From Patescibacteria group bacterium (GTDB lineage: Bacteria; Patescibacteriota; Patescibacteriia; SG8-24; DYFX01), in assembly GCA_038062835.1 (NCBI GenBank), contig JBBTWH010000005.1, positions 20,699 to 84,698 on the forward strand: 64,000 nucleotides of DNA, read 5' to 3'. This document shows positions 4,438 to 27,588 of the stretch, piece by piece. Both the position numbers and the translations under genes were made by a program. The notes under the pieces were generated by a model. It was not told the origin of the DNA. It made no database searches and saw nothing but the letters and a program-made list of their open reading frames with translations. Each line of letters starts with the position of its first letter. Position 1 is the stretch's first letter.

Positions 4438-5928
4438 ATGCTTGAAGAGGAAATCGTCCGCCGCGAAAAGGCCGCCAAGCTCCGTGAAGCCGGCATCGAC
4501 CCGTATCCGCCCGCGACCGCCCGCGACGCCACCTGCGCCGAGGCGGTTTCGCGTTTCGACGCCTGGGGTGCCGAAGGGAAATCCATCACGCTGGCCGGGC
4601 GCCTCCGCTCCATCCGCGCCCACGGCGGCGCGGCCTTCGCCGACCTGACCGACGAATCCGGCAAACTCCAGCTCCACATCAAGAGCGACGTCATCGGCGT
4701 CCCTTCATTCGAGCTGTTCGCGGAGATGATCGACCTCGGCGACTTCATCGAGGTCAGCGGCACGCTCTTCATCACCAAACGCGGCGAGAAGACGCTGGAA
4801 GTCAAATCCTGGCGCTTGCTCGCCAAGGCTCTCCTGCCGCTTCCGGAAAAGTGGCACGGCCTCTCCGACGTCGAAGTCCGCTATCGCAAGCGCCATCTCG
4901 ACCTCGTCGCCAACGAGGAAGTGCGCAACACCTTCCGCACGCGCAGCCGCATCGTCCAGGCCATCCGCGAGGTCCTGCATCGCGAAGGCTTCATGGAAGT
5001 CGAGACGCCCATCCTGCAGACGCAGGCCGGCGGCGCTTCGGCGCGTCCGTTCGTCACGCACCACAACGCGCTCGACCTCGACCTCCAGCTCCGCATCGCG
5101 CCGGAGCTCCACCTGAAGCGCCTCATCGTCGGCGGCTTCGAGAAGGTCTTCGAGGTGGCGCGCTGCTTCCGCAACGAAGGCATCAGTTTCCAGCACAATC
5201 CCGAATTCACCCAGGTCGAGTTCTACTGGGCCTATGCCACCTACGAGGACCTGATGGCGCTCACCGAGCGGATGCTTTCCGAGATCGTCACCAAAGCGCT
5301 CGGCCGCGCGACCGTCGAACGCGATGGCGTCACGCTCGATTTTTCCGGCCCGTTCCCGCGCCGCAAGTTCTACGACCTCGTGAAGGAAAGCACCGGCATC
5401 GATCTCGAGAAGGTCCGCACGGAAGCCGACCTGAGGGACGCCATGGAAGAGAAGAAGCTCAAGATCGACCTCGACGGCCTCTTCGGCTTCGGCGAGATGG
5501 TCGACGCGCTCTACAAGGTATACGTCCGCCCCAAGATCGTCCAGCCGACCTTCGTCATCGACTATCCGGCCGAGATGATCCCGCTCGCCAAGCGCAAGCC
5601 CGACGAGCCGGACCGCATCGCCACCGTGCAGCTGCTCGTCCAGGGCATCGAGGTCACCAAGGCCTACAACGAGCTGAACGATCCGCTCGAACAGGAAGCG
5701 CGCTTCGCCGAGGAGGCCAAGAAGAAGGAAGCCGGTTCCGGCGAGGCCATGCCCGCTGACGCCGATTTCGTCGAGGCCCTGAAGTACGGCATGCCGCCCA
5801 CGGCCGGTTTCGGCATGGGCATCGACCGCCTGACCGCGCTTCTCACCGGCGCGCACTCCATCAAGGAAGTCATCCTCTTCCCGACGCTCCGTCCTGAGCA
5901 GGAATCGCAAGAAGATGCCCAGAGTTAA
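4438..5928 (+). CDS. lysS: Lysyl-tRNA synthetase (class II)
   Basis: N-terminal OB anticodon-binding domain plus class II core motifs (motif 2 FRNEG..., motif 3 GMGIDRL). 496 aa. Confidence 0.95.
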   Translation: MLEEEIVRREKAAKLREAGIDPYPPATARDATCAEAVSRFDAWGAEGKSITLAGRLRSIRAHGGAAFADLTDESGKLQLHIKSDVIGVPSFELFAEMIDLGDFIEVSGTLFITKRGEKTLEVKSWRLLAKALLPLPEKWHGLSDVEVRYRKRHLDLVANEEVRNTFRTRSRIVQAIREVLHREGFMEVETPILQTQAGGASARPFVTHHNALDLDLQLRIAPELHLKRLIVGGFEKVFEVARCFRNEGISFQHNPEFTQVEFYWAYATYEDLMALTERMLSEIVTKALGRATVERDGVTLDFSGPFPRRKFYDLVKESTGIDLEKVRTEADLRDAMEEKKLKIDLDGLFGFGEMVDALYKVYVRPKIVQPTFVIDYPAEMIPLAKRKPDEPDRIATVQLLVQGIEVTKAYNELNDPLEQEARFAEEAKKKEAGSGEAMPADADFVEALKYGMPPTAGFGMGIDRLTALLTGAHSIKEVILFPTLRPEQESQEDAQS

Positions 5929-6793
5929 GACGCTGGTCACGCACGTCATCCCGCATCTCGACGACATCGCCGCGCTGTGGCTGCTTGTCCGGTTCGATCC
6001 GTCCGCGAAGAAGGCGCCGCTCAAGTTCGTCGAGACGTCGCCCGAGGGCGTGAAGCTCGCGAAGGGCGAAGTCGGCGTCGGCGTGGGGCGCGGACGCTAC
6101 GACGAGCATAAGGGCGACTTAAAGGACAGCGCGGTGAGCCTCGTCTGGAAGGACCTGAAGCGCCGCGGCCTTACGCCCGTTTCGCACCGGGGTGCCGCGC
6201 TCGCCGCGCTCGTCGATTTCGTGCGCCGCGGCGACATGGGCGAATACATCGGCAAGGAAGGTCCTGGCATCGCCACGGCCACGACGCTGCGCGCGCTCGC
6301 CAAGCTTCCCGGCGAGAGTTCGAAAAGCGCCACGCTCGTCGGCTTCCGCCTGCTCGACGCCGAACTCGTCCTCTACGAGGAGCGCGCCAAGATCGACGCC
6401 GCCCTCGCGCGCGGGAAGAAGTTCACGACGAAGTGGGGGAGGGGCGTCGGCATCTCGGTCGAAGCCGTCCCCGGCATGGTCTCCGGCCGCATCGCGGAAC
6501 TCGGCTATGCCATGGTCGTCCTGCATTACTCCAAGACCGGCTTCCTGCACGTGCGCGCCACGCCCGGCACGAAGGTCGACCTCTCGAAGCTCGCCAAGCA
6601 GGTGATGAAGGAAGAGCCGCAGGCGCGCTGGTACCTTCACCATTCCAAGAAGATGCTCTTGCAAGGGGATTGGGTCGCGCCGGTCACGACGCGTTCGAAG
6701 TACGGCGTCAAGGAGATGATCACGCTGATCGCCCGTTTATATCCTCCCCTTAAGGTAAGGGGAGGCAGGAGGGGTTATGCACGACTCCGATAA
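5915..6793 (+). CDS. MYG1/UPF0160-family metal-dependent hydrolase-like protein
   Basis: N-terminal THVIPHLDDIAALWLL and GVGVGRGRYDEHKGD resemble the MYG1 HxxxFHCDEALA and VDVGGEYDP..HRYDHH metal-binding motifs. Family assignment is by memory only. Confidence 0.4.
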   Translation: MPRVKTLVTHVIPHLDDIAALWLLVRFDPSAKKAPLKFVETSPEGVKLAKGEVGVGVGRGRYDEHKGDLKDSAVSLVWKDLKRRGLTPVSHRGAALAALVDFVRRGDMGEYIGKEGPGIATATTLRALAKLPGESSKSATLVGFRLLDAELVLYEERAKIDAALARGKKFTTKWGRGVGISVEAVPGMVSGRIAELGYAMVVLHYSKTGFLHVRATPGTKVDLSKLAKQVMKEEPQARWYLHHSKKMLLQGDWVAPVTTRSKYGVKEMITLIARLYPPLKVRGGRRGYARLR

Positions 6794-7262
6794 CTCCCCC
6801 TTGCCCCCTCTTGCTTCAAGAGGGGGGACCAAAAAGTCCATCGCCTTCGGCACCTTCGACGGCTTCCATCCCGGCCACAAGCACTATCTCGACGAAGCCG
6901 CCTCCTATGGCGACCTGACCGTCGTCGTCGGCCGCGACGCCACCGTCTACAAAGTGAAGGGCCGACTGCCGATCCGAAACGAGGACGAGCGCCTCGCCGC
7001 CTTGAAGAAGGCCGGCTATGACGCCCGGCTCGGTTCGCTGACCGACCGCTACGCCGTCTTGGCCGAACTCCGGCCCGATTTCATCTGCCTCGGCTACGAC
7101 CAGCAGGCCTTCACCGGTAAGCTCGACCAGGCCTGTTCAGCCATCGATTTGTCCGCTACCATCGTGCGCATAGGGGCCTATAAGCCCGAAACGTATAAGT
7201 CCTCCCTGCTCGACCGCCATGAAGCTCCTGATCGGGACGTCCAACCCGGGAAAAGCCGCTGA
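6777..7262 (+). CDS. Cytidylyltransferase-like nucleotidyltransferase (FAD synthetase RibL / CTP:glycerol-3-phosphate cytidylyltransferase-like fold)
   Basis: GTFDGFHPGH nucleotidyltransferase (H/T)xGH motif near the N-terminus. About 160 aa. SD AGGAGGGG precedes the ATG. Confidence 0.5.
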   Translation: MHDSDNSPLPPLASRGGTKKSIAFGTFDGFHPGHKHYLDEAASYGDLTVVVGRDATVYKVKGRLPIRNEDERLAALKKAGYDARLGSLTDRYAVLAELRPDFICLGYDQQAFTGKLDQACSAIDLSATIVRIGAYKPETYKSSLLDRHEAPDRDVQPGKSR

Positions 7263-7830
7263 ACTCGCCGGATACGTGGGCGAGCTCGGCTTCGAGATCG
7301 TCACCTTGGCGGACCTCGGCATCGCTTCCGTGGAGGAGACGGGGGAGACCTTCGAGGAGAACGCGGTCCTGAAAGCCAAGGCCTACGCCGCCGCCTCCGG
7401 CCTCCCGACCCTGGCCGATGACGCGGGGCTCGAGGTCGACGTCCTGGGCGGCGCTCCGGGCGTACGCACCCATCGCTGGCTCGGCGAAGACGTCACCGAC
7501 CTCAAGCTGTTCTTCGCCATCCTCGACAAGATGCGCGGCGTGCCGATGCCGAAGCGTTCCGCGCGTCTCAAGGTCGTCCTGGCGCTGGCGACGCCTGGCG
7601 GGAACGTCGTGACGGTCGCCCGCGCGGCCGAAGGCAAGATCGTCGAGGAGCAGGACGCGCGGCCGGACAAAATCCCGCCGGGCTACCCGTTCAAGAGCCT
7701 GCTCATGCTCGACGCCGTCGGCAAGCTCTACTGCGACCTGACTGAGGAAGAGCATCTCGCCATCAATCACCGACGCCTCGCGGTCCAGGACCTCCTGCCG
7801 CATCTCGAAGCCATCGCTCAACACGCCTGA
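7219..7830 (+). CDS. rdgB: Non-canonical purine NTP pyrophosphatase (RdgB/Ham1 family)
   Basis: MKLLIGTSNPGK... Ham1-family N-terminus, about 200 aa. Overlaps the upstream ORF by 44 nt. Confidence 0.8.
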   Translation: MKLLIGTSNPGKAAELAGYVGELGFEIVTLADLGIASVEETGETFEENAVLKAKAYAAASGLPTLADDAGLEVDVLGGAPGVRTHRWLGEDVTDLKLFFAILDKMRGVPMPKRSARLKVVLALATPGGNVVTVARAAEGKIVEEQDARPDKIPPGYPFKSLLMLDAVGKLYCDLTEEEHLAINHRRLAVQDLLPHLEAIAQHA

Positions 7831-7831
7831 T

Positions 7832-9145
7832 ATGCTGGACATCAATCTCATCCGGGAGCATCCCGAGCTCGTGAAGAAAGGCGCGGCCGCCAAGCGGTCC
7901 GACGTCGATATCGACAAGCTCCTGTACGCCGACGAACAGCGCCGCAAGCTCATCGGACAGATCCAGGAATTCCGCGCCGCGCAGAACGTGGCCGGGGAGC
8001 GCATCGCCAAGGAGGCGGACAAGGACGCCAAGACGAAAGCCGTCGAGGAGATGCGCGAGCTGAAGGAGAAGATGAAGACGCTCGAGGCCGAGCTGGCGGA
8101 GGCGGAAACGACCCTCCACGCGCTCTTGTCGCTCCTCCCGAACATGCCGTCGGACGACACGCCGGTCGGTCCGGACGAATCCGGCAACGTCGTCATCCGC
8201 ACGGTGGGGGAGCCGACGAAATTCGATTTCAAACCCAAGGACCACGTCGAGCTCGGCGAGGCGCTCGGCCTCATCGACAACGAGACGGGCTCCGAAGTCG
8301 CCGGCGCGCGTTTCACCTACATCAAGGGCGACCTGGCGCTCCTGCAGAACGCCCTGCACCAACTGGCGCTTTCGATCCTCACGGACGAGGCTTCGCTTTC
8401 GGCCGTCATCAAGGAAGCCGGCCTGGACGTGCCGGCCACGCCGTTCGTGCCGGTCATCCCGCCGCTGATGATCAAGCCGGAAGTCTTCCAGCGCATGGCG
8501 CGCCTCGAACCGCGCGAGGAGCGCTATCACATCCCGTCCGATGACCTCTTCCTGATCGGCAGCGCGGAACACACGCTCGGTCCCATCCACATGGACGAGA
8601 CCTTCGCCGAGAAAGATCTGCCGCGCCGCTACGTCGCCTACACGCCCGCCTTCCGCCGCGAGGCCGGTTCCTACGGCAAGGACACGAAGGGTATCCTGCG
8701 TCTTCACCAGTTCGACAAGATCGAGATGGAATCGTTCTCGCTGCCGGAACAGTCTCGCGCCGAGCAGGATCTCTTCGTCGCCATCCAGGAACACATCCTC
8801 AAGATCCTCGGCGTGCCGTATCAGGCCGTGCAGGTCTGCACCGGCGACATGGGCGGACCGGATTCCCGCCAGATCGACCTCGAATCGTGGATGCCAGGCC
8901 AGGACAAATACCGCGAGACGCACACCGCTGACCTGATGACCGACTACCAGGCGCGCAGGCTGAACACGCGCGTCCGCCGCGACGGAGGCGAGATGCAGTT
9001 CGTGCATATGAACGACGCCACCTGCATCGCCATGGGCCGCCTGCTCATCGCCATCATGGAGAACTTCCAGGAAGCCGACGGCACCATCCGCATCCCGAAG
9101 GTCCTCCAGACCTGGATGGGAGGGAGGACGCATATCGGAAAGTGA
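7832..9145 (+). CDS. serS: Seryl-tRNA synthetase
   Basis: N-terminal coiled-coil arm plus class II catalytic core. 437 aa. Confidence 0.95.
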   Translation: MLDINLIREHPELVKKGAAAKRSDVDIDKLLYADEQRRKLIGQIQEFRAAQNVAGERIAKEADKDAKTKAVEEMRELKEKMKTLEAELAEAETTLHALLSLLPNMPSDDTPVGPDESGNVVIRTVGEPTKFDFKPKDHVELGEALGLIDNETGSEVAGARFTYIKGDLALLQNALHQLALSILTDEASLSAVIKEAGLDVPATPFVPVIPPLMIKPEVFQRMARLEPREERYHIPSDDLFLIGSAEHTLGPIHMDETFAEKDLPRRYVAYTPAFRREAGSYGKDTKGILRLHQFDKIEMESFSLPEQSRAEQDLFVAIQEHILKILGVPYQAVQVCTGDMGGPDSRQIDLESWMPGQDKYRETHTADLMTDYQARRLNTRVRRDGGEMQFVHMNDATCIAMGRLLIAIMENFQEADGTIRIPKVLQTWMGGRTHIGK

Positions 9146-9152
9146 AGAGGGG

Positions 9153-9240
9153 CGGCAGCCAGGCCCCCGTTCGCTGGCGCCGGGAAAGAGGTACGTCACT
9201 GTTTTGAACGGACGCTGCGCTCACGGGGGCCTGGCTGCCG
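9153..9240 (+). repeat. Structured intergenic hairpin element, family A copy 1 (candidate cis-regulatory RNA or sRNA)
   Basis: 17-bp perfect inverted repeat cggcagccaggcccccg / cgggggcctggctgccg flanks a 54-nt core TTCGCTGGCGCCGGGA...GAACGGACGCTGCGC. The same core occurs again at 28314-28400 with different flanks. It ends about 16 nt before the alr start. Confidence 0.5.
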
Positions 9241-9256
9241 AAAAAGGGGAGAACGG

Positions 9257-10417
9257 ATGGAAGGTGTATACTGGGAGCGTATGCCTAAAAATGGTCCCAA
9301 AACTTGGGTCGAGGTTTCGCGTTCGGCGCTTATCGCGAACGCCAAGGCGTTCAAGCGCCGCGTGAAGCCGGGCGTGGCCGTGATGGCCGTCGTGAAATCG
9401 AACGCCTATGGCCACGGCCTCGTCGAGGTCGCCAAGACCGTCCAGCCGCATCTGGACTGGTTCGGCGTCGATAACGTCGATGAAGGGTTAGTACTCAAGA
9501 AGGCCGGCATCAAGAAACCGATCCTCATCCTGGGCTTCACGCCCTCGTGGCGCATGAAGGACGCCGTCCGCGCGGGGCTCCGCATGGTCGTTTCGACCGT
9601 CGAGCAGGTGAAGGCCGCGCGTGCCGCCGCCAAAGGCAAGAAGGCGTATCTCCATGTGAAAGTCGAGACGGGCACCACGCGCCAAGGCACAGGCCTCCGC
9701 GAGCTTCCGGCCGTCGCCCAGGCCATCCGCGTCTCCAAACAGCTCGTATTCGAAGGGCTCTCGACGCACTACGCCAACATCGAGGACGCGACGGAACATT
9801 CGTATGCCGCCGGCCAGCTCGAGGCCTATCAGAACGCGCTCGACATCCTTGACGCGCACGGCATCATGCCGCCCGTGAAGCACACCGCCTGCACGGCGGC
9901 CGCGATGATGTATCCCGACACGCATTTCGACATGGTCCGCGTCGGCATCGGCCTCTACGGCATCTGGCCCTCGCTCGAGACCCGCGTCGAGACGGAAGCC
10001 AAAGGCATCGAGTTCGATCTCAAGCCCGCGCTGGCGTGGAAGACGCTCGTCGCGCAGGTGAAGGACGTGAAACGCGGCACGCCCATCAGCTACGGACTCA
10101 CGGAAAATATGCCGCGCGACGGCAAGATCGCGGTGATCGGTCTTGGCTACTGGGACGGCTTCGACCGCGGACTCTCGTCCGTCGGCGAGGTCTTGGTGCG
10201 CGGCCGCAAGGCGAAAGTCATGGGCCGCGTCTGCATGAACATGTGCATGATCGACGTCAGCGACATCCCTGGCGTGAAGGCCGAGGACGAAGTCATCCTG
10301 ATCGGTGCAAGCGGCAAGCTATCCGTCAGCGCCGACGACATGGCCAAGAAGCTCGGGACCATCGCGTACGAGGTCGTGACGCGCATCAATCCGCTCGCGC
10401 CGCGGGAACTCGTATGA
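9257..10417 (+). CDS. alr: Alanine racemase (PLP-dependent)
   Basis: AVVKSNAYGHG PLP-lysine motif. 386 aa. Upstream of ddl. Confidence 0.9.
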   Translation: MEGVYWERMPKNGPKTWVEVSRSALIANAKAFKRRVKPGVAVMAVVKSNAYGHGLVEVAKTVQPHLDWFGVDNVDEGLVLKKAGIKKPILILGFTPSWRMKDAVRAGLRMVVSTVEQVKAARAAAKGKKAYLHVKVETGTTRQGTGLRELPAVAQAIRVSKQLVFEGLSTHYANIEDATEHSYAAGQLEAYQNALDILDAHGIMPPVKHTACTAAAMMYPDTHFDMVRVGIGLYGIWPSLETRVETEAKGIEFDLKPALAWKTLVAQVKDVKRGTPISYGLTENMPRDGKIAVIGLGYWDGFDRGLSSVGEVLVRGRKAKVMGRVCMNMCMIDVSDIPGVKAEDEVILIGASGKLSVSADDMAKKLGTIAYEVVTRINPLAPRELV

Positions 10418-12298: not shown

Positions 12299-12330
12299 TC
12301 CGTCCAGTCCACACAATGTACGACACTCAT

Positions 12331-12484: not shown

Positions 12485-12673
12485 GCCCTCTATTGTGTCG
12501 CATAAGATACATTGTCAGACACATCTTAAGGCGAAATCCCTGACCTGCTCATACTCCCCTCCGGCTTGTTCGATTGGGCATTCCGATGTAGGATGGCGTG
12601 TCAGCGCGCGACGGACGGCGCATGCGTCGTCGAAAATGCCGCTGATGAAGAACCTTGAACGGAAGGATTTTGA

Positions 12674-13276
12674 ATGTCGGAATACGATGATGGCACTCCC
12701 CGACCGCCGAAGCGGTTCGAAGAGCGCGTGAACGGGGAGACGGCCAGTCGCACGGCCGCCCACGAGGCAGGGCACATCCTGACGGCTTGGCTCTCGTGGG
12801 CCGTGGCTTCCGTCGACGGCACGGTCTTCATCACGGGCGACGACGATACGAGGGTCGAGGTCAAAATGACCTACCGCCGTCCCTACCAGCCGATCCAGCT
12901 CTGGGAAGCTCTCGTGATCTCGAGCGCAGGCATGGCCGGAGAAGTCGTGACTCATCATGCCTTCAAGACCAGGAACGCCCGCGTCGACATCCAGAACATG
13001 CGTACGCAGATCGAACAGCTTACGAGGTGGTTCGGCACCGCGCTCAAGCCGCCTTGGCCGGAACCGACCGCACGCGACGCTCCGCCGTTCGAGACGTACT
13101 TCAAAGACAACCTGCCGGACGGATGGGGCGGGCTCATGCGTTCCGTCTATCGCCGCGCCAGGGACATCATCCTGTCCAATCGAGGGGCTTTCGAACGCCT
13201 GCGCACCGCCATGCTCGTGAAGATCGAGCTGACGACTGCCGAGATCGAAGCCGCTCTCCGGATGCCGAAGGCCTGA
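12674..13276 (+). CDS. Standalone FtsH-type zinc metallopeptidase (peptidase M41) domain protein, no AAA+ or TM domains
   Basis: Matches the FtsH protease domain along its whole length: AAHEAGHILTAWL (HEXXH zinc site, compare FtsH VAYHEAGHALVGWL), SAGMAGE (compare LYGGRLAEE), ARVDIQNMRTQIEQLTRWFG (compare [20 protein letters not shown]), and a C-terminal helical region like the FtsH C-terminus. SD GGAAGGA sits 6 nt upstream. Confidence 0.7.
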   Translation: MSEYDDGTPRPPKRFEERVNGETASRTAAHEAGHILTAWLSWAVASVDGTVFITGDDDTRVEVKMTYRRPYQPIQLWEALVISSAGMAGEVVTHHAFKTRNARVDIQNMRTQIEQLTRWFGTALKPPWPEPTARDAPPFETYFKDNLPDGWGGLMRSVYRRARDIILSNRGAFERLRTAMLVKIELTTAEIEAALRMPKA

Positions 13277-13277
13277 C

Positions 13278-13823
13278 ATGCTCATCGATGACTTCGCGAA
13301 CGTCGTCGTGGTGATCGCCCACGAGGCCGGCCACGCGGTGACGGCCTGGGCCTCGCCCATGATCTCGCCTCCGATGGCCATCCGCTTCTTCCCCCTCTAC
13401 GGAGGGGCCGAATGCGAAGTCGTATCCCTGCCTGAACCGAACTCAACGACCGACTGTCTCGAGTTCGCCAGCCTGTTCCTCGGCGGCATCGCCGGCGAGA
13501 CCGCGGTCTTCGGCGGCTTCAACCGGCTGGCCGGTAATGACCTGTCCCTCGCTCTCGCGATGGCCGTCTGGGTGCGGAAGCTGCGCGGCGCGCCGAAGCG
13601 CCGCGCTCGACGCACGTACTTCCTCTCAAAGATCCATCCTTCCATCAGCCGCGAACTGCACGGATTCCTCGACCAATCCTACGACCTGGCCGTCAGCCGC
13701 GTCACGGCCCATAAGGCCGCCCATGACGAACTGAGGAACCTGCTCGCGCGCGGGTACGCCTCAGGAAAGATCGAATGGAAGGAGGCGGAACTCGCCGCCT
13801 GCCTCGGACCGAAACCTCCATGA
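13278..13823 (+). CDS. Second standalone FtsH-type (M41) metallopeptidase domain paralog
   Basis: IAHEAGHAVTAW HEXXH, LFLGGIAGETAVFG, GNDLSLALAMAVWVRKLRG. Same domain order as the upstream ORF. Starts 1 nt after the upstream stop. Confidence 0.65.
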   Translation: MLIDDFANVVVVIAHEAGHAVTAWASPMISPPMAIRFFPLYGGAECEVVSLPEPNSTTDCLEFASLFLGGIAGETAVFGGFNRLAGNDLSLALAMAVWVRKLRGAPKRRARRTYFLSKIHPSISRELHGFLDQSYDLAVSRVTAHKAAHDELRNLLARGYASGKIEWKEAELAACLGPKPP

Positions 13824-13848
13824 ATCCCCTCCTCGCGGGGATTTTTTC
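13824..13848 (+). terminator. Rho-independent terminator after the M41 pair
   Basis: atcccc-tcctcgc-ggggat followed by tttttt. A second hairpin ccgcct..aggcgg with an A-run on the plus strand reads as a terminator for the convergent minus-strand gene. Confidence 0.6.
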
Positions 13849-13964
13849 GCACGCACGAAAAAAACCGCCTACCAGGAGGCGGCTCCTCGGACGTAGTCCG
13901 AGACGATGCCAGCGCGGCGACGCAAGGGGCACTGATGGAACACCGCGTGAAAAAGGTCAAGGTC

Positions 13965-14342
13965 TCAGCGAAGGACAAGGGCCGTCAGGATGGCCAACAG
14001 GGCGAGCGTGAAGATCAGCTGCGGGTGGCGGTGCGGGTTCTGCAGCGTGTCCTTCACCCGGCGGGACGGCAGGAGTTGGTCGTACCGCTTCCGGCAGGCG
14101 CTGCACTTCAGGCGCCTCCCATAGCCGGCCTCGTGCGCGACGGTGAATCCTCCGTTCGGACGGATCTTGCACGGCGGACACCAGATGAGATACGTCGGAA
14201 TGGCGCCGGTCCAATCAGGACGCTGTAGGTTCCCCAGGAAAATGGGGCGCCCACGCGGAGCGGCCCGGGCTTCGGCACCATGCGCCGCGATGAACTCTTC
14301 GTCGGTCCAAAGATCTCGGGGTTTCTGGACTTCTATCGTCAT
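13965..14342 (-). CDS. Tail-anchored zinc-ribbon membrane protein (CPPC...CSAC), unknown function
   Basis: Good SD (GGAGG, 6 nt, ATG). Two CxxC pairs 19 residues apart. C-terminal hydrophobic helix LIFTLALLAILTALVL. Convergent with the M41 pair. Confidence 0.55.
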   Translation of the reverse strand: MTIEVQKPRDLWTDEEFIAAHGAEARAAPRGRPIFLGNLQRPDWTGAIPTYLIWCPPCKIRPNGGFTVAHEAGYGRRLKCSACRKRYDQLLPSRRVKDTLQNPHRHPQLIFTLALLAILTALVLR

Positions 14343-14399: not shown

Positions 14400-15689
14400 T
14401 TACAACGACAAGTAATTGAGAGGGTTGACCGGAATGCCGCCGACGCGGAATTCCAGGTGAAGGTGGGCGCCGGTCGTCAGATTGCCGGCGCCGGGCGTGC
14501 CCGGAGCGCCGCCGGAGTAAGCTATGACGTCGCCTTTCTCGACGTAGGTATCCTCCGCTACGACGATACGCGAGACATGGCCGTAAACCGTCGAGATGTC
14601 ACCGTCGTGGATCAGCATGACGTAGCTGTAGCCCATGCCGGCGTTCTTGGCGCGGGCGACGTAGCCGCCCTTAGGCGCGCGGATGGCGGTCCCCTGCGCG
14701 GCCCGAACGTCGATGGCGGGGTGCTCGAAGACGTGGCGGAACGGGTAGTCGGGGTCGTGGAAATACGCGGTGATGCCACGCGACGGATCGACCGGCCAGC
14801 CCCAGCCGCCGCTGCCGCCGGAGAGCTTCCGCAAGCGATCTTCGTCGAGCGTCTTGCGGAGCCGCCGCTCCGTCGCCGCGATGTCGGCGTTGATGTTCTG
14901 GACCTCCTTCTGCAGTTGCGCCAGTTCGTAGCGGTAGCGCGTCTCCGAAGAACGGATCTGATCGGAAAGCACGGTTTGGGCGACCTTCTGCTCGCCGAGC
15001 TGGGACTTCGCGGCGTCGAGCTGTTTCCCGATTTCCTCGAGGTGCGACTTCTTGAGCGCCTCTTCGCGCTCGCGCTTCTCCAGGTCGGCCTTGAGCGCGG
15101 CGACCGTATCGAGCGCCTTCTTCAGCTCGCGCTGTGAATCCTCCAAGAACTGCACGTCGTTGAAGAAATCGGAAAGCGTCTTCTGCGTGAGGAAGAGGTC
15201 GATGGCCGTGCGCTGATCCGTCTTGTGCAAGGCGCGGATGAATTCGCCGATGAGGCCGCGCTGGCGCATCATCTTGAGCGACTTCTCCTGGATCTTGGAG
15301 GTGAGTTCGCTGATCTCGAGTCCGGTCGCTTCGATCTCCAGCTCGTTGGCGGATATGTCGAGTTCCGTCTTGGCGATGCGGTTCTGGACGATGGCCAGCT
15401 CGTTCTGCACGCTGACCGCTTCCTTGCGCTTCGTCTCGATGGCGCGCTGGTATGCCTCCATCTGCGCCTTGATCTGCGTGATCTCGCCCTTCTTCTTGCC
15501 GATCTGGTCGTTGAGCTGGTCGATGACTTTCTTCAGGTCGTCCGAGTCTTCGAGCTCGGCCGCATCGGCCGACGACTCCGCTCCCTGCGCGACCGCGAAA
15601 GGAGGCATCGCCGCCGAGAACGCGAAAACCGCCGCCAGCACGGCGGCCAGCGCCGGTTCGAATATCCTCCTTTTGGCGCGTTCAGGCAT
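14400..15689 (-). CDS. M23-family peptidoglycan DD-metalloendopeptidase with long N-terminal coiled coil (EnvC-like)
   Basis: Signal peptide, about 250 aa coiled coil, C-terminal M23 LytM domain (...HDGDISTVYGHVSRI..., ...GAHLHLEF...). Confidence 0.85.
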   Translation of the reverse strand: MPERAKRRIFEPALAAVLAAVFAFSAAMPPFAVAQGAESSADAAELEDSDDLKKVIDQLNDQIGKKKGEITQIKAQMEAYQRAIETKRKEAVSVQNELAIVQNRIAKTELDISANELEIEATGLEISELTSKIQEKSLKMMRQRGLIGEFIRALHKTDQRTAIDLFLTQKTLSDFFNDVQFLEDSQRELKKALDTVAALKADLEKREREEALKKSHLEEIGKQLDAAKSQLGEQKVAQTVLSDQIRSSETRYRYELAQLQKEVQNINADIAATERRLRKTLDEDRLRKLSGGSGGWGWPVDPSRGITAYFHDPDYPFRHVFEHPAIDVRAAQGTAIRAPKGGYVARAKNAGMGYSYVMLIHDGDISTVYGHVSRIVVAEDTYVEKGDVIAYSGGAPGTPGAGNLTTGAHLHLEFRVGGIPVNPLNYLSL

Positions 15690-20874: not shown

Positions 20875-23493
<2,619 letters not shown>

Positions 23494-23623: not shown

Positions 23624-24400
23624 TTACGGTCGAGTGGATTCTCCTAATAGTGGGAAGGCGTAGCGCGCATCTTTTTCAGTGGCGGCTGAAATTCCCACGG
23701 GCGGCCTTGCGAACGAGCCCGCAAATTTTGCGATAGAGACACGGCCAAGGAAGACGGCGACGATGTTCACGCAGGTCAGAAGGTTATTACGCCTCCCCGT
23801 ATCCGTTTTTACGTTGTAACCGAGCGTGTGGTATTTCACGTCTTCATTCCAAGCCAAGGCATCAAGATAGTGCAAGAAGGCTTCTAGGGGCATCCCGTAG
23901 GCGCTGGGGACTGTCTTTGAAATTTCATCGACGACTTCCTGCGGCGGTTCATACCTCCAAATTCCACTCGCGACTTCCTTGTGGTCGAGTACATAGGCGG
24001 ATCTGAACAGCAGACTACCGAGCAACTCCAAAGTCATTTCATCCTCTCTTCCGATTTTCTGAAGCTCTTCGAACACGTCGCGGAACGATGCGGGCGTTCC
24101 CACAATGGCCCCCTTTTGCTCAAGACAAGGGAGCATGTCGTTGGGGTTATTCCCGATGTGCCCATCCTTATACTTGCATCTGTCGTAATCTGGCGCAGCC
24201 TCCTTGCCGGGTTTTCCAAGCAAAATCCTATTATCACCTTTGGTCCAAACGGGTTGATAGGACTTTGCTTCTTGTGATGTGCCTGTCGGCCAAGAAATCG
24301 CCTCTTCAACCATGGCCAAGCGGACGAGCCCGCTGCGCTTCTTATCAATCTTGCCGGTTTCCAACAGTTGAGCAAGCCTATTTTCGCGTGCATCAGTCAT
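23624..24400 (-). CDS. Hypothetical protein on low-GC island, divergent from the DNA methyltransferase (candidate restriction endonuclease or other partner)
   Basis: The tracked ORF runs to 24655, but its first roughly 85 codons are antisense to the MTase start and promoter. Likely start is MTDARENRL... near 24400. About 52% GC versus about 65% in flanks. No recognisable family. Possible D..(18 residues)..DHK PD-(D/E)xK-like spacing. Confidence 0.45.
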   Translation of the reverse strand: MTDARENRLAQLLETGKIDKKRSGLVRLAMVEEAISWPTGTSQEAKSYQPVWTKGDNRILLGKPGKEAAPDYDRCKYKDGHIGNNPNDMLPCLEQKGAIVGTPASFRDVFEELQKIGREDEMTLELLGSLLFRSAYVLDHKEVASGIWRYEPPQEVVDEISKTVPSAYGMPLEAFLHYLDALAWNEDVKYHTLGYNVKTDTGRRNNLLTCVNIVAVFLGRVSIAKFAGSFARPPVGISAATEKDARYAFPLLGESTRP

Positions 24401-24517
24401 GTTTGTATGGTAACTTGATCTTCCTGTCCGTGTGGGATATATTATCAACAGGCCCGTTTTGACACGTTCGCCTGCAGTCATACTACCATTCTCACACCAT
24501 TGCAATATCAACTCTAT

Positions 24518-26260
24518 ATGGCAAAGCAATTGAGGGCAATCGACTTCTTCTGCGGTGCGGGCGGTTGGTCCGAAGGGCTCAGGCAACAGGGAATCAAGGT
24601 CGTGATGGGCATCGACAACTGGCGCCCGGCCGTCGAGACCCACAACATCAACCACGGCCTCAACGACGTCGTCGGTGACGTCTTGTCGTTGGAGGGCGAT
24701 GTCGATGCGACTATCGAGAAGCTTCCTGATACCGAAATTATCGTCGGCAGCCCGCCGTGCATCTCTTTCTCGATGTCGAACAAAGCAGGTAAAGCTGACA
24801 AGTCACTCGGTATCCGCCTAATCGAGGCCTACTTGCGCTTCGTCGCCGTGAAGAAGCACAAGAAACGTTCCATTCTGCAAGCTTGGTACATGGAGAATGT
24901 CCCGAACTCCAGGAATTTCGTGCAGAAGACGTACACGTTTGCTGATTTGAATCTTTCAGCTTGGGCCAAGAAGAACGGCAAGAATCCGAAGGCTGTCGCA
25001 CTGAACGTCCAGGACAACGGCGGGATTCTCTGCGCGGCGGACTATGGATCACCCCAGAGTCGTGAACGTTTCGTTTGTGGCGAAATGACAAAGCGCAACG
25101 GTTCCGTAAAGGTCGGTGAATTCTTGGCTCCGAAAGTGACCAACGCGAACAGCCGCGTAACGTTGGAGGACATCAAGGGAAAGATGCCGAAGCCGACGGA
25201 GAAGCCTGGGAACAAGGCTTGGGCAGATCCGAACTACCCGAATTTGAAATTGAAGGTCCAAGACATCACGGATCATTTCTACGACCCCGGTGTCTACCGT
25301 TCCGAATGGGAAAGCGCGAAAGCCGCCAAGGTGAATCACCCGTTCATGGGCAGAATGTCCTTCCCAGAGGACCGGAAGCGGCCGAGTCGGACGATTATGG
25401 CAACAAGGTCTGGAAGCACGCGCGAGGCCATCATCTACCCTTCCGAATGGGGTCATGTCGGCGACGGTCAGTATCGCCTCCCCACGATTCGTGAGGCGGC
25501 TTCCCTGATGGGTTTCCCTATCACCTACCAGTTCACGGGTGGTGAAGGATCTAAATGGCGGCAAATCGGCAATGCCGTCTGCCCGCACATGAGCGCCGCT
25601 ATCGGCGCGGCTCTCCGAAAGGCATTCGGCATGCGGCCGATTCCGGTCGCAAAAATCATGTTTGACGCCAAGCACGTGAAGGATGAGCGTATCCTGAATC
25701 TCAATACTTTTGCGCCGCGTTCCTACGACAAGCCGCCTCTTAGAAAGGCTGGGGCGAAGTTCCGACGTCAGCCATTCAAGTCTGGCAACATGACCGTAGC
25801 CCTGATGAATTTCGATCCTAGGGTGAGCATCGGTGCGGCTGTAGCCTCAGATTGGCGCGCTGTCGTCTTCGTGGGTGCCGGGAAAGTGTATGATACGGTC
25901 GAGCTGGGCCTTGATGACCTCCGGGTGCTAGAAACGAGCCTGGCCTCCCGAAAAGAAGGTCGCACATTCATTGCCGAGTTTGAGAAGAAGTTCGATGGTA
26001 AAGTCGCTCCTACCGCCGAGCTCCAAACCATCTTCGAAACGAACCAGCCTGGCACGAAGGCGCTCGCGCCCTCCGAACTCGTTCAGGCGGTTGCAGATCT
26101 CGCTGAGAAGGTCGGTAGCGGTCCTGCTCCGGTCACCAATCCCATCATGACGAGGGTCCGGAAGGCAGAAGTGCCCCATCAGCAACTGCTTGCCATGTAC
26201 GCCCTTGCGCGCATCTCAGCAGAAATCAAGCGCGCCGCGGCCGTTCCGGAGCCGGCTTGA
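24518..26260 (+). CDS. DNA (cytosine-5)-methyltransferase with about 200-aa C-terminal extension
   Basis: Motif I FFCGAGGWSEG, motif IV GSPPCISFS (PC catalytic Cys), motif VI ENVPN, motif X QIGNAV. Residues about 380-586 extend beyond the catalytic domain with no recognisable motif. Confidence 0.9.
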   Translation: MAKQLRAIDFFCGAGGWSEGLRQQGIKVVMGIDNWRPAVETHNINHGLNDVVGDVLSLEGDVDATIEKLPDTEIIVGSPPCISFSMSNKAGKADKSLGIRLIEAYLRFVAVKKHKKRSILQAWYMENVPNSRNFVQKTYTFADLNLSAWAKKNGKNPKAVALNVQDNGGILCAADYGSPQSRERFVCGEMTKRNGSVKVGEFLAPKVTNANSRVTLEDIKGKMPKPTEKPGNKAWADPNYPNLKLKVQDITDHFYDPGVYRSEWESAKAAKVNHPFMGRMSFPEDRKRPSRTIMATRSGSTREAIIYPSEWGHVGDGQYRLPTIREAASLMGFPITYQFTGGEGSKWRQIGNAVCPHMSAAIGAALRKAFGMRPIPVAKIMFDAKHVKDERILNLNTFAPRSYDKPPLRKAGAKFRRQPFKSGNMTVALMNFDPRVSIGAAVASDWRAVVFVGAGKVYDTVELGLDDLRVLETSLASRKEGRTFIAEFEKKFDGKVAPTAELQTIFETNQPGTKALAPSELVQAVADLAEKVGSGPAPVTNPIMTRVRKAEVPHQQLLAMYALARISAEIKRAAAVPEPA

Positions 26261-26672
26261 TTCCAGAAAGTGTCAGGAAGTTGAATATCTTGCCGGTCAC
26301 CTTTAGGCGATCGGTTTTGATTTCATGTTCCCAAACGCGTATATATTTCCAACCGAGCCTCCGCAGCTTCGCAAAATTACGACGGTCCCGGCGTCGGTTT
26401 CTCTCGATCTTATCTCGCCAGAACTTCTGACGAAGCTTGTGCCTCCAGGCCGGGTAGCGATACCCGTGCCAGAAATCGCCGTCTACGAAAATCGCGAGCT
26501 TTCGGCTCGGAATGGCGAGGTCGGGTGAGCCAGGCGCTTTCTTGTAGTGTTTCTGAAAGTGCACCTTACGCCTCCGCAACTCACGAAAAACAAATATCTC
26601 AAGGCTCGTGTTCTTACCGCGCACCCGCGACATGATGCGGCTACGGATTTCTTTGGAGAACTTGTCGGGCAT
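26226..26672 (-). CDS. vsr: Very-short-patch repair endonuclease (Vsr)
   Basis: FVDGDFWHG signature, basic about 148-aa protein. Convergent with the MTase and overlaps its end by 35 nt. Confidence 0.9.
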   Translation of the reverse strand: MPDKFSKEIRSRIMSRVRGKNTSLEIFVFRELRRRKVHFQKHYKKAPGSPDLAIPSRKLAIFVDGDFWHGYRYPAWRHKLRQKFWRDKIERNRRRDRRNFAKLRRLGWKYIRVWEHEIKTDRLKVTGKIFNFLTLSGIKPAPERPRRA

Positions 26673-26749
26673 ACGCCTCGATACTGTAACAAATCGCAGA
26701 CTCCCGCGTCTTTATCATTGGAGGTTGCTCCACCAAAATATATTTCCCT

Positions 26750-26962
26750 ATGTCCCACCACAACGATGCGCCCGGCATGAAAGGTTACCGCTCTCGTAAC
26801 GATGATGGCCAGCTGCGCGACAAGCGCGACGACACCCACATGGGCACGATCGAAAAGCAATATAACCGTGATTTCGACGTCCGATCTGACATGGAACTCG
26901 GAAATTTCCTCAAGCGCGAGGGGTTTAAGTCGCTAAATGACCTGCTCCGCAACGAGCGCTAA
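26750..26962 (+). CDS. Small hypothetical protein with C-terminal SAP/Rho_N-like helix-hairpin-helix motif
   Basis: 70 aa, charged N-terminal region, C-terminal DMELGNFLKREGFKSLNDLLRN. No SD seen. Sits in the lower-GC island. Confidence 0.35.
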   Translation: MSHHNDAPGMKGYRSRNDDGQLRDKRDDTHMGTIEKQYNRDFDVRSDMELGNFLKREGFKSLNDLLRNER

Positions 26963-27375
26963 TACAACCACTCTTCTACCCCGCCGTGATGGGAACAGGT
27001 GCCTCGGCGGTTCTGACTGAAGCTGTAGGTACCATCACGACATCGGGCCGAGGCGCCTGCAGGGCTTGAAGGTGCGTAATATGGGCTTGGTACCTCGTTG
27101 CCATCGACATTCGTGTACGTGCCGCTTGGCGCGTAGTCCGTAGTTGGCTCTTGCGTCTCAGGGGCCCATTTTATCGGTGTGTCGTCCTTCGCCGGTGCGA
27201 TTTCAGATACCTCTTCTACTGGTTTGATGGCTGGTTCAAGTTGAAACTGTGGCTGGACAATTGGTGCGGGCACCGGTGTCGAACTGGGACTCGGAACGTC
27301 AGCAACGCAACCTTGGCCAACAAGCGCCAGTGTTGCGAATAAAAAAGCTGTTTTTCTCCAAAAGCAAGGCATCAA
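26959..27375 (-). CDS. Lipoprotein with C-terminal DUF3761-like domain
   Basis: Signal peptide with lipobox (LVGQGC), Pro/Ser-rich linker, C-terminal CRDGTYSFSQNRRGTCSHHGGV matching the C.DG..S.S.....G.CS.HGGV pattern remembered for DUF3761. Confidence 0.6.
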   Translation of the reverse strand: MMPCFWRKTAFLFATLALVGQGCVADVPSPSSTPVPAPIVQPQFQLEPAIKPVEEVSEIAPAKDDTPIKWAPETQEPTTDYAPSGTYTNVDGNEVPSPYYAPSSPAGASARCRDGTYSFSQNRRGTCSHHGGVEEWLY

Positions 27376-27577
27376 AGTAGACGTCTTAGCGCAAATCCAA
27401 GAATACGGCGCGAGATATTTTTTGGATTACGTATGATTCCAATGAGTATTACGAGTGGAAGAATGGGTCCCAGAATCTCCCAAACAATTTTACGTGCCTC
27501 AAACCTGGCCCCTAACATTTGTGGAATGAGTGTCCATAGCATTTCTTGTGCCTGTCGCGAATCGAATTCAATCATAG
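27372..27577 (-). CDS. Small putative membrane protein
   Basis: Internal start MIEFDSRQAQEMLWTL... with one hydrophobic helix ILGPILPLVILIGII. About 42% GC locally. The tracked ORF's N-terminal extension overlaps the pirin gene. Confidence 0.3.
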
Positions 27578-27588
27578 GGTTACAAAAA

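Follow-up and report, generated by a model that had tools for sequence, protein, structure and literature searches.

Introduction

In the current understanding of FtsH-type proteolysis, the secluded protease ring is fed by an AAA+ unfoldase in cis, to which cleavage is strictly coupled. In FtsH, AFG3L2 and YME1, the peptidase domain of family M41 (PF01434) bears the HEXXH motif on its first long helix, a glutamate on the Gly-rich helix (GxAAE), an aspartate as the third ligand on the next helix, and a C-terminal helical bundle, and these proteins also possess a transmembrane (TM)/periplasmic domain, an AAA+ module and an AAA lid. We analysed two adjacent genes, open reading frames (ORFs) A and B, located next to ftsQ in 64,000 nucleotides of DNA from a metagenome-assembled genome (MAG) named 'Patescibacteria group bacterium' (GenBank assembly GCA_038062835.1, contig JBBTWH010000005.1, positions 20,699 to 84,698 of the forward strand; hereafter the window). 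The products of A and B share the helices, predicted ligands and C-terminal bundle with these proteases, and differ from them in having no TM/periplasmic domain, AAA+ module or AAA lid, in being only 14-23% identical to FtsH protease domains, and in carrying family-specific Trp and Pro-Pro-Trp motifs.

Among the described systems, the chloroplast FtsHi proteins of the Ycf2-FtsHi motor likewise have diverged M41 domains, figure among the top structural matches of A, and reside in hetero-oligomeric rings. They are described as 'proteolytically inactive' in one paper (PMC6460958) and called 'pseudo-proteases' in another (PMC8197885). FtsHi kept the AAA+ module and lost HEXXH, whereas A and B show the reverse, with the ATPase lost and the catalytic site kept. 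Closer in size are Rhizobiaceae proteins of about 248 amino acids (aa) from cultured bacteria (P0221, P0236), named 'ATP-dependent Zn protease', which also combine an M41 domain containing HEAGH with the absence of an AAA P-loop domain. Unlike A and its relatives, they retain an AAA-lid-like segment (LTGADVERIV..., read by eye), lack HEAGHxxxAW and PPW, and match the profile of the A family only at about E 1e-13, worse than many FtsH fragments do. They are a separate truncation lineage. An 'FtsH-like' gene of unexplained function has been noted in the Pseudomonas jumbo phages MIJ3 (gp107) and PA5oct (gp342) (PMC6892783). It is a precedent, likened by description only, for FtsH-related genes in large phages; the difference is that searches of GenBank phages by tblastn with A, or with the phage-contig family member P0022, gave no match at E<=1e-3. 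Finally, M78 (ImmA/IrrE) and other small HEXXH peptidases resemble A and B in being small and soluble, in carrying HEXXH, and, often, in lying in mobile contexts, yet no M78 profile matched A or B and the high-scoring folds were only of the FtsH type.

Results

Two stand-alone M41-type domains next to ftsQ

A preliminary description of this locus, drawn up from the sequence by itself, had placed three ORFs after ftsQ. All three, A, B and a convergent ORF C, were found where it had put them. The two M41-like ORFs are as follows.

12674-13276, plus strand: ORF A, 200 aa, stand-alone FtsH-protease-domain (M41-like) protein; HEAGH at residues 30-34, E90, D105

13278-13823, plus strand: ORF B, 181 aa, second stand-alone M41-like protein; HEAGH at residues 15-19, E74, D88

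Proteins identical to A and B are annotated as hypothetical (AAB554_01395 and AAB554_01400) in the MAG, and are encoded on several Hainich groundwater metagenome contigs, the longest of which is 85.6 kb.

The best Pfam match of both ORFs was Peptidase_M41 (PF01434). The expectation that this model would recognize the two of them was borne out for B, which scored 31.8 bits against a gathering score of 29.9, and failed for A, which at 19.7 bits stayed under it. B aligned with residues 275-365 of Thermotoga FtsH, a stretch that takes in HEAGH and the 'NDxxxA' helix. From 146 distant short homologues, with the close relatives of A left out, we built a profile that covered residues 10-195 of A (150.6 bits), residues 12-180 of B (71.9 bits), and the whole protease domain of Escherichia coli FtsH (51 bits). 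HEAGH is the predicted zinc-binding/catalytic motif in both proteins. Alignment to FtsH assigned E90 of A and E74 of B to the glutamate of the Gly-rich helix, and pointed to D105 and D88 as the candidate third zinc ligands. Across 52 diverse members, in which the mean column identity is only about 20%, residues H30, E31, H34, G86 and D105 were invariant and E90 was nearly so. The motif details given beforehand were correct as to HEAGH and the third-ligand aspartate, but A has VD rather than ND at the latter position and B has no WFG segment.

An AlphaFold2 model of A, computed from the A alignment, reached a predicted local distance difference test score (pLDDT) of 82 and a predicted template modelling score (pTM) of 0.82. 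When this model was searched with Foldseek, the 50 best PDB matches were without exception protease domains of FtsH, AFG3L2, YME1 or FtsHi, and the protease-domain fold of the model retains the FtsH C-terminal helices. Judged by alignment and profile coverage, A and B are full-length M41-type domains with the predicted catalytic residues intact, in keeping with the original assignment. The two are only 20-25% identical to each other, and A is 27-33% identical to members encoded on phage-like contigs. Since A and B are no closer mutually than to those members, the pair does not represent a recent tandem duplication.

Disrupted ftsH and other HEXXH families as alternatives

The FtsH-related sequence of A and B, and the presence of a full ftsH at the same slot in a related genome (L022, see below), would fit a reading in which the two ORFs are remnants of a disrupted full-length ftsH. 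Several results speak against it. None of the Pfam models AAA, AAA-lid and FtsH_ext matched A or B, and with the NCBIfam equivalog for FtsH (TIGR01241), whose cutoff is 600, the two ORFs scored no more than 15.9 and 19.2 bits. No hydrophobic stretch of TM grade was present in either product. A tblastn search with E. coli FtsH revealed no AAA+ remnant upstream of A, and the 375-nt spacer between ftsQ and A is occupied by a terminator-like hairpin, a conserved element and a promoter-like region. A and B each form a complete protease domain that begins a few residues before HEAGH, and the short-family profile scored them higher (150 and 72 bits) than FtsH (51 bits). Both are under purifying selection: against relatives, the ratio of non-synonymous to synonymous substitution rates (dN/dS) was 0.29-0.35 in A and 0.48-0.54 in B, against 0.22 in FtsQ. 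At least 12 homologues of 40-78% identity preserve the 200-aa form, and the same count holds when forms of 180-200 aa are considered. The absent AAA remnant, the complete domains, the purifying selection and the recurring 180-200-aa form together rule out fragments of a broken ftsH.

Membership in another HEXXH family, such as M78 ImmA/IrrE, fared no better: Peptidase_M78 (DUF955) was unmatched at E<=1, and all top fold matches were of the FtsH type. As far as sequence analysis reaches, the remnant reading and that of another HEXXH family are already refuted, and we consider either of them exceedingly improbable. The preliminary description was right on both counts.

A family of stand-alone M41-like proteins

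To what extent A and B have relatives was determined by an exhaustive HMMER search with the A-family profile against 1.84 billion representatives of clusters formed at 50% identity. The search returned 537 representatives at E<=1e-3, of which 174 were at E<=1e-10. The best 150 of the 537 were all 178-278 aa long; HExxH was present in 149 of these 150, and was preceded by an N-terminal hydrophobic helix in 74. Pfam M41 was matched at E<=0.01 by 51 of 52 sampled members. The initial view that free-standing copies are unusual does not stand against these numbers.

The family signature reads HEAGHxxxAW ... W ... LAGxAAE ... SGxxxxDL ... PPW ... AYxxAR ... LGxR. A carries all signature positions, and B, with HEAGHAVTAW, GIAGE and D88 and without W77 and PPW, is a diverged member. 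The HEAGHxxxAW motif, the Trp before the Gly-rich helix, and the Pro-Pro-Trp are positions absent from FtsH. Source databases list members under the names 'hypothetical protein', 'ATP-dependent Zn protease' or 'cell division protease FtsH'. On the evidence of profiles and signature, A and B belong to a distinct uncharacterised family of stand-alone M41-like proteins that comprises hundreds of clusters.

A scan of GTDB genomes, which samples the taxonomic spread of the family poorly, gave 599 matches with a first pattern, none of which was confirmed, and at least two true stand-alone loci with a second. Six apparent relatives from Pirellula and other Planctomycetota (L023-L028) were discarded, since they proved to be full-length FtsH (632-724 aa) rather than stand-alone proteins.

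Members on phage-like contigs and at other cellular loci

Three distant members were placed on long contigs of 202, 183 and 246 kb (L014, L034 and L035, in no particular order). These contigs look phage-like, being dense, mostly one-directional arrays of small unknown ORFs, among which are genes for ThyX, a family-B DNA polymerase, GP88, a Tad2-like protein, an integrase, HNH and TnpB-like proteins. Five IMG/VR contigs contained relatives, with stand-alone forms in two of them (L016, L019). An N-terminal TM helix is present in the members from L014 and L016, and in none of the chromosomal copies of the Candidate Phyla Radiation (CPR). Another IMG/VR contig (L020) encodes a 564-aa protein with AAA and M41 domains, and BFVD holds one 214-aa 'Peptidase M41 domain-containing protein' from an uncultured phage.

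The remaining two IMG/VR contigs (L017 and L018, 60.8 kb) encode one 801-aa protein (5869-8274) in which the M41-like domain is split between residues 20-181 and 741-782. The insert of about 560 aa had no Pfam match; it is possibly an inserted domain of intein-like or novel type.

Two further cellular loci were inspected. In L037, a single copy lies amid housekeeping genes, with no ftsH. In L021, from a MAG labelled Gammaproteobacteria, a stand-alone copy is followed 4 kb downstream by a canonical ftsH. Known defence systems and known phage families were also considered and rejected as an identity for these genes: no PADLOC-DB family matched A, B or C at E<=1, and PHROG gave no convincing match to a known phage family.

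M41-like genes in the slot between ftsQ and M23

The slot that A and B occupy in the window is bounded by ftsQ and by a convergent gene for an M23 peptidase. Every retrieved relative with the frame ddl-ftsQ ... M23 had one or two M41-like genes in this slot, drawn from clades A, A'' and B, which are mutually 20-26% identical and thus no nearer to one another than to the members on phage-like contigs.

Window, L031 and L006-L008: A and B

L029: a gene of the third clade, A'' (HECGH), and B; FtsQ is 84% identical to that of the window

L032: A'' alone

L033, 406-1105: a pair of overlapping ORFs, of 127 aa (containing HECGH) and 144 aa, in place of an intact A''

L009, L010 and L030: A alone, with a SET-domain gene replacing B and an extra 245-aa gene

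L011 and L012: A alone

The split A'' of L033 is either a pseudogene or a frameshift error of sequencing or assembly. B is absent from L009-L012, L030 and L032, all of which keep an A-type gene, so B is not an obligate partner in general. This finding and the low A-B identity go against the proposal that the two proteins form a hetero-oligomeric A3B3 ring, and an obligate ring of this kind is unlikely. Ten unknown genes, together making up a 5-kb block (4999-10017), intervene in L006 between a conserved upstream element, described below, and the A homologue. One product of this block (307 aa) weakly matches a PHROG 'head morphogenesis' family (E 1e-5); the block is possibly what remains of a phage or satellite.

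The most telling arrangement was seen in a distant relative, L022, from the MAG 'bacterium nzgw370' (JAHFIV010000002.1), whose Ddl is 48% identical to that of the window. Its gene block runs serS-alr-ddl-ftsQ, ftsH, two M41-like genes, M23-gltX-wecG on the opposite strand, and ClpB. Within 5441-9335 there is a canonical ftsH of 595 aa (FtsH_ext, AAA, lid and M41; 195 bits), followed by the M41-like pair, whose products are 255 and 215 aa long. The peptide MSFRAVTRN can be read on either strand of the DNA that separates the latter of these two genes from M23 (9360-9640), a sign of palindromic repeat elements.

Predicted regulatory elements of the A-B transcription unit

The DNA flanking A and B contains the following features.

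12313-12326: site 1, ACAATGTACGACAC, directly after the ftsQ stop codon

12331-12359, plus strand: terminator-like hairpin after ftsQ, GGTCCGGATCGTCCGGACC and then a T-rich tail, called by a consensus scan

12493-12533, plus strand: site 2, conserved non-coding element TTGTGTCGCATAAGATACATTGTCAGAC(ACATCTTAAGGCG)

12566-12594, plus strand: putative sigma70-type promoter with -35 TTGTTC (12566-71), a 17-nt spacer and -10 TAGGAT (12589-94); predicted transcription start near 12601

13823-13847, plus strand: hairpin AATCCCC-N7-GGGGATT and a T-run, read from the sequence and uncalled by the consensus scan

13858-13882, minus strand: hairpin CCGCCT-N6-AGGCGG and T7, likewise read from the sequence and uncalled by the scan

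One prominent feature of this region was the 28-nt TTGTGTCGCATAAGATACATTGTCAGAC (12493-12520), the most conserved DNA of the locus. It is kept with at most five mismatches in all nine lineages of the ftsQ-M23 type, mostly upstream of the first slot gene, and together with site 1 it is more conserved than the flanking proteins. Its placement does not depend on which gene comes first: it is found where A'' occupies that position (L029, L032, L033), ahead of the intervening 5-kb block in L006 (4923-4950), and between ftsH and the first M41-like gene in L022 (7698-7725). L031, L009 and L011 have it as well. Site 2 contains the dyad TGTGTC-N18-GACACA, and zero chance matches to it are expected in the window. 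Site 1 is an inverted compact copy, in which the two half-motifs of site 2 (GTGTCG / ACATTGT) appear as their reverse complement, and is conserved after ftsQ in eight of nine aligned loci. The composite pattern GTGTCG-N(0-12)-AYATTGT occurs in only two copies in the window, against 0.02 expected by chance. Hairpins of different sequence occupy the same place behind ftsQ in L031, L009, L029 and L006.

The putative promoter is preceded by a conserved ACTCCCCT block (12553-60). In seven of the nine loci, TTGAC[ACT]-16/17-TAnnnT recurs at a fixed distance of 68-80 nt downstream of site 2; the copy in the window is a weaker match that the consensus scan left uncalled. We infer from these arrangements that the sites constitute a dedicated, regulated sigma70-like promoter with an upstream operator or regulatory site for the M41-like operon. 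The 28-nt element could act as an operator, an upstream activating site or an RNA helix. In the alignment, read by eye, RNA pairing between sites 1 and 2 is kept in seven of eight loci, solely by invariant bases or G-U pairs, and is broken in L011. With no compensatory support and no Rfam family matching the site 2 element, the case for a helix is not decisive.

A GGAAGGA Shine-Dalgarno sequence lies 7 nt upstream of A, and a single nucleotide separates the A stop from the B start (TGAcATG), an arrangement suggestive of translational coupling. The hairpin at 13823-13847 is likely the intrinsic terminator of the A-B transcript, and that at 13858-13882 is likely the terminator of a gltX-M23-C transcript arriving from the other side. 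A and B would accordingly make up a two-gene, translationally coupled operon with a promoter and a terminator-like end of its own.

ORF C and the M23 neighbour

Downstream of B, on the opposite strand, lies the third ORF.

13965-14342, minus strand: ORF C, 125 aa, tail-anchored, with four conserved Cys (WCxxC...CxxC)

Four homologues of C share the invariant residues C55, C58, C80 and C83 and the hydrophobic helix at 106-124 (Kyte-Doolittle mean 2.02), and dN/dS was 0.25-0.41. With two CxxC pairs and a C-terminal TM helix, C fits the description of a tail-anchored zinc ribbon with predicted zinc binding, and no curated family of Pfam or NCBIfam matches it. C starts 57 nt after the M23 stop codon. 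Because of this short gap, in which the consensus scan called no terminator-like hairpin, and because C has a hairpin of its own, we assigned it to the gltX-M23-C unit. Assignment to the A-B unit is not supported, as C follows M23 on the opposite strand, is separated from B by two convergent terminator-like hairpins, and is missing in L022, which has two M41-like genes. The suggestion that C is a membrane tether or substrate adaptor of A and B is not upheld by this arrangement. Homologues of A and C do co-occur, as had been anticipated, but in a manner indistinguishable from plain synteny. A link of C to A or B is possible, and is no better supported than such synteny.

The M23 peptidase (14400-15689, minus strand) is always beside the slot. 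It has a signal-like N-terminus and a long coiled coil, and its LytM catalytic motifs (HxxxD, HxH) appear intact when read by eye. Its homologue in L022 weakly matches the PcsB coiled-coil model; if this match holds, the peptidase would be EnvC/PcsB-like.

Gene content around the slot

The gene order 5' of A is mreB-mreC-(182 aa)-PBP2-greA-(class II aminoacyl-tRNA synthetase)-...-serS-alr-ddl-ftsQ. That on the 3' side of A-B is C-M23 peptidase-gltX-wecG on the opposite strand, with cupredoxin, ferric reductase and ClpB beyond. The preliminary description had taken the slot for the place of ftsA-ftsZ at the tail of the division and cell wall (dcw) cluster. By tblastn, ftsZ and a canonical ftsH were not found in the window and ftsA was likewise undetected (the part from about 44 to 64 kb was covered by these three queries only), and no called gene for any of the three lies within the 10 kb preceding the window. 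The lack of ftsZ, and of any ftsA that the search could detect, agrees with that description, but serS-alr-ddl-ftsQ ... M23-gltX differs from a canonical dcw tail. Within the 64 kb, tblastn matched FtsH only at AAA segments of ClpB (21487-21717, 22690-22743) and at ORF B.

Two other stretches drew attention. The region 24000-28000 of the window has a GC content of 0.54, against about 0.63 elsewhere. Genes for a DNA cytosine methylase (~24.5-26.3 kb) and a Vsr-like endonuclease lie there, so the stretch is possibly an acquired island, of restriction-modification or mobile type. On the same contig, some 5-10 kb ahead of the window start (L036, 1-5122; attributed to Patescibacteria), there is a cluster of genes for Mrp-antiporter-like and NiFe-hydrogenase/complex-I-like subunits.

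Discussion

We consider it probable, with moderate confidence, that A and B are functional stand-alone M41-like zinc metallopeptidases, occurring on phage-like contigs as well as in the Patescibacteria slot, and that they cleave without a motor of their own. Zinc would be bound by the two histidines of HEAGH and the conserved aspartate, and the proteins would assemble through the same surfaces as the FtsH protease disk. They could then cleave unfolded or peptide substrates without an in-cis ATPase, whether by themselves or when docked to, or mixed with, the FtsH of the cell or another unfoldase. The fast turnover of paralogues in the slot, together with a family shared with phage-like contigs, suggests substrates tied to phage-host or envelope/division processes and not to bulk proteolysis.

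Several points weigh against this reading. The protease sites of FtsH are fed by the AAA+ ring, and both the assembly of an isolated disk and its activity on proteins are in question. The Pfam score of A falls below the gathering score, and the single-sequence model of B had a pLDDT of 40, its fold being taken from sequence profiles alone. We found no paper on stand-alone prokaryotic M41 proteins. The phage-like nature of L014, L034 and L035 is judged from gene content and IMG/VR membership only, and the null results from PADLOC and PHROG lend nothing to a role in defence or in phages. Adjacency to ftsH, which favours some functional tie to FtsH, was seen in only two loci (L022 and L021), and in neither L037 nor the window.

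The same adjacency is the starting point for a different explanation, in which the domains do not act alone but are modulators that insert into, cap or compete for the canonical FtsH ring and alter its activity or choice of substrate; in a variant of it, the cellular copies are regulators and the phage-contig copies hijack or inhibit host FtsH. The CIII protein of phage lambda also hijacks or inhibits host FtsH, by a different route. Two M41-like genes directly behind a canonical ftsH at the same slot in L022, the ftsH 4 kb downstream in L021, and the preservation of the whole protease-domain fold down to the C-terminal helices would all suit a modulator, and the N-terminal hydrophobic helix of about half of the family would put the domain at the membrane where FtsH resides. 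The chromosomal CPR copies, however, have no such helix, and no ftsH is nearby in the window, in the preceding 10 kb or in L037. The two cases of adjacency are perhaps not independent, the M41-like proteins L022_1 and L021 being 38% identical. The catalytic residues, all of them invariant, argue against a purely structural decoy, since a pure scaffold or decoy needs none. We rate modulation of FtsH as rather unlikely. Somewhat more room, though still on the doubtful side, is left for the slot being a variable island in which phage-derived or exchanged M41-like genes serve defence, superinfection exclusion or counter-defence. This explanation concerns the biological role and is compatible with the biochemistry of motor-less peptidases. 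It would account for the swapping of clades A, A'' and B among genomes whose FtsQ proteins are 84% identical (L029 versus the window), for A being as close to the phage-contig members as to B, for a copy number that varies from 1 to 2, for the other insertions in the slot (the 5-kb block of L006; the SET-domain gene and the 245-aa unknown gene of L009), for the fast evolution of B (dN/dS about 0.5), and for the many members on contigs that resemble those of huge phages. On the other hand, PADLOC was unmatched, GenBank phages contained no homologue detectable by tblastn, and the slot has no integrase, att-like duplication or shift in composition, its GC of 0.63 being that of the flanks. Moreover, the slot, the promoter and the upstream element persist down to a Ddl identity of 48%, which resembles a resident, regulated host function.

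A family of hundreds of clusters retained the full catalytic domain and lost the motor. This raises the question of whether an M41 disk assembles and cuts alone, or borrows a motor in trans (FtsH, ClpB). With its presence on phage-like contigs, its fixed and, as predicted, separately regulated slot beside ftsQ, ftsH and M23 in CPR bacteria, and its rapid turnover of paralogues, the family is a candidate for a part in phage-host interaction or division/envelope control, in organisms about which experiments have so far revealed almost nothing. At its broadest, and as an unlikely but possible outcome, the family may constitute a hitherto unrecognised class of proteases, derived from FtsH and devoid of an ATPase, which pass between huge phages and their hosts, CPR or other, and serve mutual conflict or the reprogramming of the host FtsH ring, the CPR copies forming a regulated, rapidly diversifying module under an ultra-conserved operator by ftsQ and M23. 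The 28-nt element offers a handle for finding the regulator.

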